64,000 nt of DNA. It comes from Minisyncoccota bacterium (lineage in GTDB: Bacteria > Patescibacteriota > Minisyncoccia > UBA6257). Shown here piece after piece: positions 4,747 to 45,799 of this stretch; position 1 is the stretch's first letter, and each line of letters opens with the position of its first letter. The position numbers were made by a program, and so were the translations under genes. The stretch spans positions 255,297 to 319,296 of the forward strand of contig JAQVJR010000001.1 in the NCBI GenBank assembly GCA_028695015.1. Reading direction: 5' to 3'. The notes beneath the pieces are model-generated. The model had not been told where the DNA came from. It made no database searches and saw nothing but the letters and a program-made list of their open reading frames with translations.

Positions 4747-6902
4747 TGAGTAATTATTAAGAGATTGTCTTTTTTGTTTTCATAATGAGGTAGTTTTTGC
4801 CAAATAGCTTCAGTAACAAATGGCATGAATGGATGTAGCATTTTTAAGCAATCTTTCAGAATTATATCAAGGATATATTGAGCTTGTTTTTTATCTTGAT
4901 TATCTTTAATCCTGTTTTTCATTTCCTCAATTATTTTATCAGCAAAAGTGTGCCAAAAATAATGATAAAGGGCTTCTCCAGCTAAAGAGAATTTAAAGTT
5001 TTCTAAGTTTTTTGTTATCTTTTGTTTTGTTTTCTTAAAGGCAATTAATGTCTTTTTATCTTTTACATTAAGTGTTGGTTTTTTACCATCATAATCATTT
5101 AAATTACTAATAACAAAACGAGAGGCATTCCATATTTTATTAGCAAAATTACGATAACCTTTGATTTTTTCTTCTGAAATAACAATATCATTACCAGCAG
5201 TATTACCTATAATTAAAGCCATTCTTAAAGCATCAGCTCCATAAACATCAATTACAGCTAAGGGGTCAATAACATTACCTTTTGATTTTGACATTTTTTG
5301 TCTATCTTTATCTCTGACCAAACCATGAAGATAAACATATTTAAATGGAATTTTCCCAGTATAGTAAATACCTAGGATAATCATCCTAGCAACCCAGAAA
5401 AATAAAATATCCCAACCAGTTTCCATTATGTCAGTAGGATAAAAGGTTTTAAAGTCTTTTGATTTTAACCCTTGGTTGCCAAAAAGAGTAGCATAGGGCC
5501 ATTGACCTGAAGAGAACCAAGTGTCTAAAACATCAGTATCTTTTTTTATATTCTTGCTTTGACAATAAAGGCATTTCTTAGGGATTTTATCTATTTGTAT
5601 AAAAGATTCTTTGCAATCTTCGCAATGAAAGGCAGGAATAGGAATCCCCCAACGGATTTGACGGGAAATATTCCAGTCTTTAATATTATTCATCCAATGG
5701 AAAAATACCTTTTCAAAGCGAGGGGGAATTATTTTTATCTCTCCTTTTTTTACAGCATTAATAGCTAAATCGTTTAAAGACTTATTTTTCTTTGGCAAGG
5801 GTTTAGTCATTGCTATAAACCATTGATCCATAATCATTGGCTCTATTCTGGAATTACATTTATAACAATGTCCTACTTGATGAACATGCTCTTCTTTTTT
5901 AACTAAAGAGTCACTAGCTTGTAAAATTGTTATTGATTTTTCTCTGGCTTGAGAAACATTAAGTCCAGCTAAAGGCCCAGCTAATTCATTAAAATAGCCG
6001 TTAAAATCCAAAGTCTCTCTTGTTTCTAAATGATGTCTTTGTCCAATTTCAAAATCTAAAGAATCATGGGCTGGAGTAATTTTTAAAGCCCCAGTACCAA
6101 AATCAATTTCAACATCCTTATCAGCAATTATAGGAATTTCTCTTTTAGTGATTGGTTCGATAACAACTTTATTAATTAATTTTTTATATCTATTATCCTT
6201 AGGATTAACGGCTATAGCTGTGTCTCCAGGAATAGTTTCTGGTCTGGTAGTAGCCACAGTAATCCATTTGTTTCTTTCTTCTTTTAATTTGTATCTTACA
6301 AAATAGAGAAAATCTTTTTGTTCTTGATATTTAACTTCTAATTCAGAAAAAGCGGTTTTATGCTTAGGGCAATAATTGACAATTCTTTTACCTCGATAGA
6401 GTAATCCGTCTTTCCACAATTTCTCTAAGGTTTGATAAACAGTTTTTTGAATATCCTCATCAAGAGTAAATTTTTCCCGAGACCAATCACAAGAAGCTCC
6501 TAAGAGCTTTAATTGATATCTGACAATTTTTTTGTTTTTTTGCGTATATTGCCAAACTGCTTTATAAAACTCATCTCGATTCATCTCTAAGCCAGATTTC
6601 CCTTGCTTTTCTAATTCTTTTTCAAAAACTACTTGGGTTTCAAATCCAGCATGATCAGTGCCTGGAAGCCAAAGAGTTCTTTTGCCTCTCATTCTTTGAA
6701 AACGAATCATCAAATCTTGCAAAGTAACAAAAACACCATGGCCAATATGTAATGGTGCATTAGCGTTTGGCGGAGGCATAATAATGCAAAAAGGTTTGCT
6801 TTTTTTATCAAAAGGTAATTTATCAGGATTAAAAAAGCCTGATTTTTCCCAAAGCTGGTAGATATTCTTTTCTGTTTTTTGATGTTCGTAAACCTTATCC
6901 AC
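4734..6902 (-). CDS. valS: Valine--tRNA ligase (short form)
   Basis: PPPNANAPLHIGHG (HIGH) and KMSKSKGN motifs. 722 aa, lacking the long C-terminal coiled coil. Confidence 0.85.
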   Translation of the reverse strand: MDKVYEHQKTEKNIYQLWEKSGFFNPDKLPFDKKSKPFCIIMPPPNANAPLHIGHGVFVTLQDLMIRFQRMRGKRTLWLPGTDHAGFETQVVFEKELEKQGKSGLEMNRDEFYKAVWQYTQKNKKIVRYQLKLLGASCDWSREKFTLDEDIQKTVYQTLEKLWKDGLLYRGKRIVNYCPKHKTAFSELEVKYQEQKDFLYFVRYKLKEERNKWITVATTRPETIPGDTAIAVNPKDNRYKKLINKVVIEPITKREIPIIADKDVEIDFGTGALKITPAHDSLDFEIGQRHHLETRETLDFNGYFNELAGPLAGLNVSQAREKSITILQASDSLVKKEEHVHQVGHCYKCNSRIEPMIMDQWFIAMTKPLPKKNKSLNDLAINAVKKGEIKIIPPRFEKVFFHWMNNIKDWNISRQIRWGIPIPAFHCEDCKESFIQIDKIPKKCLYCQSKNIKKDTDVLDTWFSSGQWPYATLFGNQGLKSKDFKTFYPTDIMETGWDILFFWVARMIILGIYYTGKIPFKYVYLHGLVRDKDRQKMSKSKGNVIDPLAVIDVYGADALRMALIIGNTAGNDIVISEEKIKGYRNFANKIWNASRFVISNLNDYDGKKPTLNVKDKKTLIAFKKTKQKITKNLENFKFSLAGEALYHYFWHTFADKIIEEMKNRIKDNQDKKQAQYILDIILKDCLKMLHPFMPFVTEAIWQKLPHYENKKDNLLIITQWPQ

Positions 6903-24083: not shown

Positions 24084-24159
24084 GGGCGTATAGCTCAGTG
24101 GTTAGAGCGCCACTCTTATAAAGTGGAGGTCGATGGTTCAATTCCATCTACGCCCACCA
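24084..24159 (+). tRNA. tRNA-Ile(UAU) with encoded CCA
   Basis: GGGCGTA acceptor, anticodon stem CCACT/AGTGG, loop CTTATAA (anticodon TAT). Body closely resembles bacterial tRNA-Ile(GAU) (TTAGAGCGC, GAGGTCGATGGTTCAATTCCATC, CCCACCA). Confidence 0.75.
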
Positions 24160-24160
24160 T

Positions 24161-24234
24161 GGGCGGTTAGCTCAGTTGGTTAGAGCGCGTACTTGACGTG
24201 TATGAGGTCAGGGGTTCGAGTCCTCTACCGCCCA
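24161..24234 (+). tRNA. tRNA-Val(GAC)
   Basis: Acceptor GGGCGGT/ACCGCCC, anticodon stem CGTAC/GTATG, loop TTGACGT. Confidence 0.75.
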
Positions 24235-24297
24235 CCCTAAGATTAAGGATTAGAAATTAACGACATTGTTTGTCGTTAATTTAAATAACAGGTTTAT

Positions 24298-28954: not shown

Positions 28955-28957
28955 AAG

Positions 28958-29029
28958 TCCCCCTGCGAGGAGTCGAACCTCGATCACGGGATCCGCAATC
29001 CCGCATTTTATCCATTAAACTACAGGGGG
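28958..29029 (-). tRNA. tRNA-Arg(GCG) (unusual isoacceptor; identity tentative)
   Basis: Reverse complement: acceptor CCCCCTG/CAGGGGG plus A73, anticodon stem CGGGA/TCCCG, loop TTGCGGA, T-arm CGAGGTTCGACTCCTCG. Confidence 0.6.
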
Positions 29030-45129: not shown

Positions 45130-45438
45130 TGCCGAGGCGGTGAATCGAACACCGGACGCTTTGCTCTTCCGAATATTCTCTAAATTACTTTAGAGTTTGG
45201 ACTATATCATCACCCTATTTATAGGGGCTGGGCGCTTTGAAGCAAATATTTACTTGCCCCTACTCTTAAAAAAGATAGTCTCTACACCTCCCTATTTGAA
45301 AATTAATTCAATTAGGTTTGGCTCGGAATTGCCCAAGACAATATTTGGGTTTTTCCGATTTCACCCAGTTTGCAATCCATATTACTATGGAATGGCCCAA
45401 AGATTTAGGCAAACGCTCTACCACTGAGCTACCTCGGC
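45130..45438 (-). tRNA. Intron-containing tRNA gene, most likely tRNA-Phe(GAA); exons 45407..45438 and 45130..45169
   Basis: 5' exon (reverse complement) GCCGAGGTAGCTCAGTGGTAGAGCGTTTGCCT. 3' exon GAAGAGCAAAGCGTCCGGTGTTCGATTCACCGCCTCGGCA. Joined, they give a 72-nt tRNA with anticodon stem TTTGC/GCAAA and loop CTGAAGA, plus U20, a GCGUC variable loop and A73 as in tRNA-Phe. Confidence 0.7.
45170..45406 (-). ncRNA. Group I self-splicing intron (IC3-like) in the tRNA anticodon loop between U33 and G34
   Basis: Exon ends in U and intron ends in G. P1: exon GCCU pairs with intron GGGC. P10: 3' exon GAAG pairs with intron CUUU just 5' of the IGS. P2: CCATA-GTAA-TATGG. P7: AGACTAT...ATAGTC. P9: CTCTAAA-GTAA-TTTAGAG. 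GGTGTAGAGACTA and CCGAGCCAAACC blocks match Azoarcus/Anabaena-type tRNA introns. Confidence 0.7.
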
Positions 45439-45545
45439 TTAATATTAAATAAAAAGTTTAGATAACTTTTATTTAATCTTCTATTTTATTATAAAGGTTT
45501 GTGCTGTCTATTCTATCTTATTATTGAAATAAAATCAATTATTAG

Positions 45546-45619
45546 TGGGCAGTATAGGATTCGAACCTATGACCTCATGAATGTAAGTCATGCGCTCTAA
45601 CCAGCTGAGCTAACTGCCC
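45546..45619 (-). tRNA. tRNA-Val(UAC)
   Basis: Reverse complement: acceptor GGGCAGT/ACTGCCC, anticodon stem CATGA/TCATG, loop CTTACAT. Confidence 0.8.
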
Positions 45620-45632
45620 TGTAATTGACAAG

Positions 45633-45705
45633 TGGACCCGAGGGGACTCGAACCCCTGACCTCTACTATGCCATAGTAGCGCTCTACCAACTAAGCTACG
45701 GGCCC
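45633..45705 (-). tRNA. tRNA-Ala(GGC)
   Basis: Reverse complement: acceptor GGGCCCG/CGGGTCC with the G3-U70 Ala identity pair, anticodon loop ATGGCAT. Confidence 0.8.
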
Positions 45706-45799
45706 TTTGTTTGTTAAGCTTACCAACTTTCATTTAATTTTTCAAGAAATATCTTTTTCTTTTTAATGAAGAATGTGATAAGATTTATTTATTAAAACT

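Follow-up and report, generated by a model that had tools for sequence, protein, structure and literature searches.

The 64-kb stretch of DNA analysed here, called the window below, belongs to a Minisyncoccota bacterium (assembly GCA_028695015.1, contig JAQVJR010000001.1) and contains a transfer RNA (tRNA) gene for phenylalanine, tRNA-Phe(GAA), which is divided in its anticodon loop by a group I intron. All coordinates are positions within the window, and the gene is read on the minus strand, from 45438 to 45130. The 5' exon (45407-45438, minus strand; GCCGAGGUAGCUCAGUGGUAGAGCGUUUGCCU, read from 45438 to 45407) covers tRNA positions 1-33 and has U33 as its last base. The 3' exon (45130-45169, minus strand; GAAGAGCAAAGCGUCCGGUGUUCGAUUCACCGCCUCGGCA, read from 45169 to 45130) runs from G34 to A73, the terminal CCA not being encoded. 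In intron mode, ARAGORN reports tRNA-Phe(gaa) i(33,237) with the same coordinates from the excised region and from the whole window, and the joined exons give a 72-nt cloverleaf with the anticodon loop CUGAAGA, the variable loop GCGUC, the T-loop UUCGAUU and the discriminator A73. An earlier note on this DNA, made from the sequence alone, had described the same object, that is, a minus-strand Phe(GAA) gene split between U33 and G34 by 237 nt, whose joined 72-nt product carries these loops and A73. The intron-aware ARAGORN search that it proposed bears out both the coordinates and the cloverleaf.

The U33|G34 junction is exact. Metagenomes of the Joint Genome Institute (JGI) were searched with the 31-nt predicted spliced anticodon arm, and two contigs (L124 and L125) were retrieved in which tRNA-Phe is uninterrupted (1258-1330 of L124, minus strand; 3423-3495 of L125, plus strand) and identical to the joined exons of the window at 72/72 positions. 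These genes read ...GCCUGAAGAGC... across the site, which corresponds exactly to a 33/34 junction. Both contigs have the gene order of the window (tRNA-Ala(GGC), tRNA-Val(UAC), tRNA-Phe and an S1-domain gene), L125 additionally keeps the transketolase side of the synteny, and their flanking genes show ~67-76% nucleotide identity to the window. Because the uninterrupted genes equal the joined exons, the junction is fixed at U33|G34 and the other boundaries that ARAGORN gives in some relatives are ruled out; the boundary cannot be slid either, since the bases at the junction differ. The ligated exons are predicted to read ...UUUGCCU|GAAGAGCAAA..., and the uninterrupted gene of these syntenic relatives, being the predicted spliced product, provides a natural control.

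The intron (45170-45406, minus strand) is 237 nt long, starts with AAAUCUUUGGGCC and ends in a terminal guanosine (omega-G) at 45170, as indicated by Rfam, ARAGORN, the uninterrupted homologues and a family alignment. The Rfam model Intron_gpI (RF00028; gathering score 50) matches positions 45178-45416 of the minus strand with 93.9 bits (E = 7e-23) over the full model, from 1 to 253, so that the covariance search suggested in the earlier note agrees with its identification of the insert as a group I intron. In the Rfam alignment, helix P1 (45394-45411) is formed by the exon bases UGCCU and the intron bases AA (45405-45411) with the guide UUGGGCC (45394-45400), the U33·G wobble lying at the 5' splice site. 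The guide bases UCUUU (45399-45403) are able to pair as P10 with GAAGA of exon 2 (45165-45169, G34-A38), a pairing supported by covariation. Further into the intron, and likewise on the minus strand, are found the P2 hairpin UCCAUA-GUAA-UAUGGA (45376-45391; covariation and minimum-energy fold) and the 5' strand of P3, CUGGGUG (45362-45368), whose partner CGCCCAG lies at 45228-45234 (covariation). P4 (UCGGAA/UUCCGA) surrounds P5 (CCCAA/UUGGG) at 45323-45358, P4 being supported by covariation and both helices by the fold, and the P6/P6a hairpin CCUA...UAGG, with the inner stem AUUGAA/UUCAAU, occupies 45291-45316 (covariation and fold). The 5' strand of P7, GACUAU (45275-45280), pairs with AUAGUC (45200-45205) in a pseudoknot with P3, as indicated by invariant pairs in the family. 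Between P7 and the 3' strand of P3 (P3') there is a 39-nt insertion (45236-45274) for which two hairpins are predicted, P7.1 (UCUU/AAGA) and P7.2 (GGGGCAAGU/AUUUGCUUC). The P8 hairpin CCCUA-UAAA-UAGGG (45213-45226; Rfam alignment and fold) and the P9 hairpin CUCUAAA-GUAA-UUUAGAG (45178-45195; fold and covariation) complete the set, P9 being followed by AAUAUUC and the omega-G.

The unconstrained minimum-energy fold of the intron recovers P2-P6, P7.1, P7.2, P8 and P9, and the Rfam alignment, the helix mapping and this fold concur on the helix set. A catalytic core, that is, P3-P8 with the P3/P7 pseudoknot, is present according to the full Rfam model, the covariation and the fold. The P1, P10, P2, P7 and P9 assignments of the earlier note all hold in the Rfam alignment, in the covariation of the family and in the minimum-energy fold; its remark that the exon ends in U and the intron in G agrees with the U33·G wobble and the omega-G that were found. 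Within the window, neither Rfam nor the intron mode of ARAGORN gives another group I intron match or another split tRNA.

The intron contains no open reading frame (ORF), as had been pointed out before: its longest sense-strand stop-free stretch is 43 codons, and no endonuclease ORF of the LAGLIDADG, GIY-YIG, HNH or His-Cys box type is found inside it. On the opposite strand, the ORF list includes a reading frame of 76 amino acids with a TTG start (45197-45427, plus strand), which the earlier note had already considered spurious. A Pfam search with this ORF gave no match, and independent assemblies of the same organism have no gene call across the intron. Long stop-free antisense stretches, with a median of 70 amino acids, are found throughout the intron family and are therefore compositional. 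On these three grounds a coding potential for the antisense ORF was rejected.

Homologous introns have been found at the same place in many other genomes. Species-representative genomes (one per species, 185,579 species) were scanned with a pattern made of the P7 3' strand, 3-33 bases, GGAARA and a T-arm at tRNA-Phe spacing, which gave at least 120 loci. In at least 91 further species-level genomes, a lower bound without a denominator, tRNA-Phe(GAA) is split after U33 by a homologous insert of 200-336 nt that begins with R-A/U-rich...CUUYGGNNC and has a terminal G. The record names, taken as deposited, are overwhelmingly those of Patescibacteria, including Paceibacterota/Parcubacteria, Saccharibacteria, Moran-, Falkow-, Doudna-, Yanofsky-, Wolfe-, Harrison-, Berkel- and Peregrinibacteria, among others. 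The gathering score of Intron_gpI is passed by 13 of the 19 relatives' loci that were sampled, the remaining six being homologous by alignment with lower scores. Among the matches listed, the closest relative is a metagenome-assembled genome (MAG) of Candidatus Paceibacterota (L043), with an intron identity of 84%.

Covariation was examined in a MAFFT alignment of 90 distinct sequences (alignment A1), which was not fitted to any structure. Paired cells amount to 89.0% versus 75.7% in column shuffles, none of the 500 shuffles reaching the observed value, and sliding the 3' partner by 1-3 columns lowers them to 31-54%. The comparative support for the intron structure is thus far above chance. 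The splice-site U·G is present in 90/90 sequences and the omega-G at the intron end is invariant. In P1, exon-guide pairs show compensatory switches (CG in 46 and GC in 43 sequences at one pair; CG in 59 and AU in 31 at another), and therefore the guide sequence tracks the anticodon stem of each host. A similar correspondence exists in P10, in which 97.8% of the cells are paired: the guide carries a C or U opposite tRNA position 37, which is G in 58 sequences and A in 31 (CG 58, UA 31). All six pairs of P2 have changed on both sides, with 97.4% of cells paired; P3 is 99.7% paired, with such changes in four of its seven pairs; P4 is 100% paired, with changes on both sides in 4/6 pairs; and P6 is 96% paired and covarying. 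The five pairs GACUA/UAGUC of P7 are invariant in 90/90 sequences and the sixth is present in 19/90. P9 exists in ~37 of the 90 family members, in which it covaries.

At the site between P7 and P3', two mutually exclusive modules are found across the family (alignment A1 columns ~360-400). About three quarters of the members (~69) carry a single hairpin of 29-31 nt with a near-invariant loop of 16-17 nt, UGAGUCCCAACAAUAAU. The other module, found in ~19 members that include the window and its closest relative L043, consists of P7.1 (4 bp), a GUA linker and a variable P7.2; the ~18 members that share this layout with the window differ in their stem sequences. These module differences, like those in P9, are ordinary peripheral variation.

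Several minor observations concern the same family. A similar conserved-loop hairpin between P7 and P3' exists in IA1-labelled tRNA-Asn introns of other phyla. Eight members (L008, L010, L049, L073, L081, L099, L115 and L119) share a conserved insertion in P6 of ~40 nt or more, AAUCCUUCGCCGGGAGGCUACGGAUUGCAAGCAAGCC..., closing with ...UUGCCUGCCGUAGC (alignment A1 columns ~215-260 and ~318-340), which looks like a discrete structured module. A separate insertion of ~100 nt is located in the P5 loop of L055. Split tRNA-Phe genes also occur in MAGs named as Gammaproteobacteria (L014, L017, L025, L081, L082, L095, L104 and L116) and as Bdellovibrionales (L031 and L058). In several of these MAGs the exons are identical to those of MAGs named as Falkowbacteria or Patescibacteria, and one or two bases away from the Moranbacteria type. 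Because of these identical exons, the names are suspected to be artefacts; otherwise, the intron family extends outside the phylum. Finally, a MAG named only 'bacterium' (L034), which also has a split tRNA-Phe, contains a match to the c-di-GMP-I-GGC riboswitch at 6807-6897 (minus strand), with 67.4 bits for a gathering score of 59.

The subgroup of the intron deserves separate consideration, since the earlier note had seen a close resemblance to IC3 introns. The classical IC3 introns are those of cyanobacterial tRNA-Leu(UAA) and tRNA-fMet and those of tRNA-Ile(CAU), and they share with the intron of the window the anticodon-loop site, the small size, the lack of an ORF, the U·G wobble and the omega-G. 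The sequence blocks on which the resemblance was based, CCGAGCCAA and GGUGUAGAGACU, are indeed shared, and the P4/P6 and J6/7 blocks (CCGAGCCAAG and GGUGUAGAGACU) are common to IC3 introns and the family of the window. The likeness does not extend further. Six IC3-labelled introns match the family profile only at profile positions ~44-140 (approximately from P3 to the 5' strand of P7), with 25-44 bits. Moreover, only a few bases separate P7 from P3' in these introns, without P7.1/P7.2; their 3' region (GUCCAGACCACAA...) differs, and no alignment to the family profile is obtained over the 3' half. In contrast, IA1- and IA2-labelled introns align with this profile over their full length, with 66-88 bits. 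Membership of IC3 was rejected on the basis of the 39-nt two-hairpin insertion between P7 and P3' and of a similarity confined to the core. In the Michel-Westhof classification, subgroup IA is characterized by extra P7.1/P7.2 pairings between P7 and P3', and two such hairpins are predicted in the window and in ~18 relatives. Judged by these proxies, the intron appears to be structurally IA-like, in line with the published survey, in which no Patescibacteria tRNA intron is assigned to IC and nearly all are assigned to IA (Nakagawa et al., 2026; PMC13011429).

Neither the host tRNA nor the insertion site is new, because a Phe(GAA) intron at 33/34, homologous to that of the window, has been published in the Doudnabacteria genome GCA_016699995.1, where the authors' own pipeline, ARAGORN and tFind all detected it (Nakagawa et al., mSystems 2026, PMC13011429, Table 1/S3). 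The earlier note had held that bacterial tRNA group I introns are described in tRNA-Leu(UAA), fMet, Ile(CAU) and Arg(CCU), and that a Phe(GAA) host interrupted 5' of the anticodon would be unusual. The first view is contradicted by that survey and by the expansion of the four classical host types to 21, given in a preprint (Williams, 2020; bioRxiv 10.1101/2020.01.27.920355); the second, by the published Phe 33/34 intron and by the at least 91 further species described above. In addition, position 33/34 is the classical, common site of tRNA-fMet introns (PMC13011429).

The Doudnabacteria intron has the host tRNA, the U33|G34 site and the phylum in common with the intron of the window, and it also lacks an ORF. 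Homology extends to its P1/guide region (gaaucuucgggcc versus aaaucuuugggcc) and its core blocks; its score against the family profile, in which the window is included, is 147.6 bits, and it is ~74% identical to the intron of the window. On the other hand, it measures 211 nt instead of 237 nt, has one hairpin, with the conserved loop UGAGCCCAACAAUAAU, in place of P7.1/P7.2 between P7 and P3', and is devoid of the P9 hairpin that the window has. Another close system is the Patescibacteria tRNA-Asn(GUU) intron at 35/36 (GCA_016700035.1), which was shown to self-splice in vitro in the same paper (PMC13011429) and is the only relative with a splicing experiment among the closest systems compared. 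This intron aligns with the Phe family profile over nearly its full length (110.7 bits), and the two have in common the P3' strand AGCGCCC, the J8/7-P7 region GAUGAGAUAGUCC and an insertion between P7 and P3'. It differs in host tRNA and insertion site, and for this reason its guide sequence is different. A more distant case is the Phe(GAA) intron at 31/32 of the Elusimicrobiota genome GCA_023213235.1, labelled IA3 in Table S5 (PMC13011429). This group I intron likewise interrupts the anticodon loop of tRNA-Phe(GAA), but its site and subgroup label differ, the global identity is only ~58%, and no nhmmer match to the family profile is obtained at E <= 10. It looks like an independent insertion.

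With these data, it is very probable that the tRNA-Phe(GAA) gene of this Patescibacteria genome is split by an ORF-less, IA-like group I intron of 237 nt, and that this intron belongs to a family which is widespread in the tRNA-Phe genes of the phylum. Both the split gene and its intron are probably functional. Once the Ala-Val-Phe tRNA cluster is transcribed, the intron would fold into P1-P9 with the P3/P7 pseudoknot, and an external guanosine bound in P7 would attack the phosphate after U33, at the U·G wobble of P1. The guide UCUUU would then hold exon 2 through P10 with G34-A38, and the terminal G at 45170 would replace the external one in the P7 site. Finally, the free 3'-OH of U33 would attack and the exons would be ligated into the 72-nt tRNA-Phe. 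We infer catalysis by the intron RNA itself, and its splicing in vivo may likewise be independent of proteins. Some points weigh against this interpretation. The subgroup was deduced from proxies (hairpins and profile matches) instead of the published subgroup covariance models. The structure submitted to the covariation test was derived from the window sequence and is somewhat favoured in the control with slid partners, and in the MAFFT alignment the pairing of P5 and P8 reaches only 60% and 70%, misalignment of regions that vary in length being the probable cause. Moreover, with 64 kb visible, a second, intact tRNA-Phe gene may possibly exist elsewhere in the genome.

Among the alternative explanations, a recent acquisition of the intron as a mobile element, by means of an endonuclease acting in trans or by reverse splicing, is unlikely when compared with old vertical inheritance. 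It would account for the mixed situation of syntenic relatives at similar divergence (~70-76% nucleotide identity of the flanking genes), with the intron in L043 and without it in L124 and L125, but loss by recombination with a spliced copy explains this pattern equally well. In addition, the intron of the window has no ORF, none of the introns in the at least 91 relatives listed exceeds 336 nt, and the guide co-varies with the anticodon stem of each host, as would be expected for a long residence. The alternation itself, with the intron present in the window and in L043 and absent from L124 and L125, takes place among close lineages despite the lack of an endonuclease gene.

It has also been considered that the intron serves chiefly to gate the tRNA-Phe supply, conditionally or as a regulator, or that it needs a host protein in order to splice in vivo. 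The persistence of the family in many Patescibacteria lineages without a homing endonuclease would be in agreement with a regulatory role, as would the fact that the split gene may be the sole source of tRNA-Phe; Nakagawa et al. (PMC13011429) speculate that introns retained in reduced genomes may be RNA-based regulators. Nevertheless, closely syntenic relatives do without the intron, which argues against an indispensable regulatory role. As for a protein requirement, the related Patescibacteria introns in the Asn and Asp tRNAs splice protein-free in vitro (PMC13011429). Such a gate, or such a requirement, is decidedly unlikely. A broader proposal, which we regard as quite improbable in its entirety, is that the intron is old and mostly vertically inherited, that it is kept as, for example, a GTP- or Mg2+-sensitive gate on tRNA-Phe, and that its periphery evolves by module swapping, the single UGAGUCCCAACAAUAAU hairpin having been replaced by the P7.1/P7.2 pair in the lineage of the window. 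What the data show in this respect is how widespread the family is, that it has two alternative modules, and that the intron is present in some syntenic relatives and absent from others.

It is very improbable that the locus is decayed, with the intron or the tRNA as a non-functional relic and tRNA-Phe supplied by another gene. An intact allele is conceivable in principle, given that 64 kb are visible and that related lineages have uninterrupted tRNA-Phe genes. Against this, none of the 45 invariant columns of the 90-sequence family is altered in the window, the core helices are all intact, and the exons coincide with the uninterrupted, functional-looking genes of syntenic relatives at all 72 positions, on account of which a pseudogene was rejected. 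Furthermore, no second tRNA-Phe was detected in the 64-kb window by ARAGORN, by Rfam or by a search for the uninterrupted anticodon arm allowing two mismatches, and each of the Patescibacteria genome rows examined in the tRNA table of PMC13011429 has a single Phe gene. The split gene is possibly the only tRNA-Phe gene of the organism. Finally, another junction or identity (exon 1 ending ...CCUAAAU and exon 2 starting AGCAAAG, with the anticodon AAA, or an intron at 34/35) can hardly be entertained and was rejected: ARAGORN calls Phe(aaa) i(37,...) or an intron position of 34/35 in some family members, and two-base boundary miscalls by tRNA-finding tools have been documented (PMC13011429), but the uninterrupted syntenic genes show 33/34, only this position gives the invariant P1 U·G and terminal G in 90/90 sequences, the P10 covariation fits an exon 2 that starts with G34-A38, and the differing junction bases of the window permit no sliding.

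The locus leaves current knowledge of group I introns and tRNA genes unaltered; it is one more well-supported instance of a published kind of intron. In draft Patescibacteria genomes the family is commoner than would be gathered from the published survey of complete genomes, which has a single case. There is also a practical consequence for genome annotation. Without its intron mode, ARAGORN finds 18 tRNAs in the window and tRNA-Phe is not among them. Default tRNA finders miss the gene, and therefore such a genome would be scored as lacking tRNA-Phe, with a lower completeness estimate, a point also made by Nakagawa et al. (PMC13011429).

The window is cellular, neither viral nor organellar, and its host is a Patescibacteria bacterium (Candidate Phyla Radiation, Paceibacteria-like). 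With a G+C content of 31%, it contains housekeeping genes for iPGM, RNase Y, an S1-domain protein, a split transketolase, a PfkB kinase, DeoC, MetRS and PilM, a content that fits a small low-GC cell. Immediately upstream of tRNA-Phe are located the genes of tRNA-Val(UAC) and tRNA-Ala(GGC) (45545-45705, minus strand), the order Ala-Val-Phe being conserved in relatives. Contigs from the assemblies of SRR8925785, SRR8925753 and SRR8925752 share this RNase Y protein with the window. In those assemblies the start of the S1 gene corresponds to 45092, and therefore this gene does not overlap the tRNA. Independent assemblies also carry a 'gene' of 52 amino acids called over tRNA-Val/tRNA-Ala (~45575-45733, minus strand, equivalent to L121:6301-6459), which is almost certainly spurious. 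A scan for promoters and terminators gave two promoter-like minus-strand sites upstream, at 45510-45483 and 45538-45510, in a number not above shuffle expectation.

The tRNA complement of the window shows some other features. Its 64 kb contain 19 tRNA genes, distributed over the two strands and with all five Leu isoacceptors among them, a high density for such a genome. One of them is a tRNA-Ile(UAU) gene at 24084-24159 (plus strand), which scores 79 bits against the Rfam tRNA model and nearly abuts tRNA-Val(GAC) at 24160-24237. In most bacteria AUA is decoded by a CAU tRNA that carries lysidine, and the UAU anticodon is uncommon. Another is a tRNA-Arg(GCG) gene at 28957-29029 (minus strand). 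The usual anticodon of this bacterial tRNA-Arg is ACG, deaminated to ICG, and the GCG anticodon may bear on the presence of TadA in the organism.

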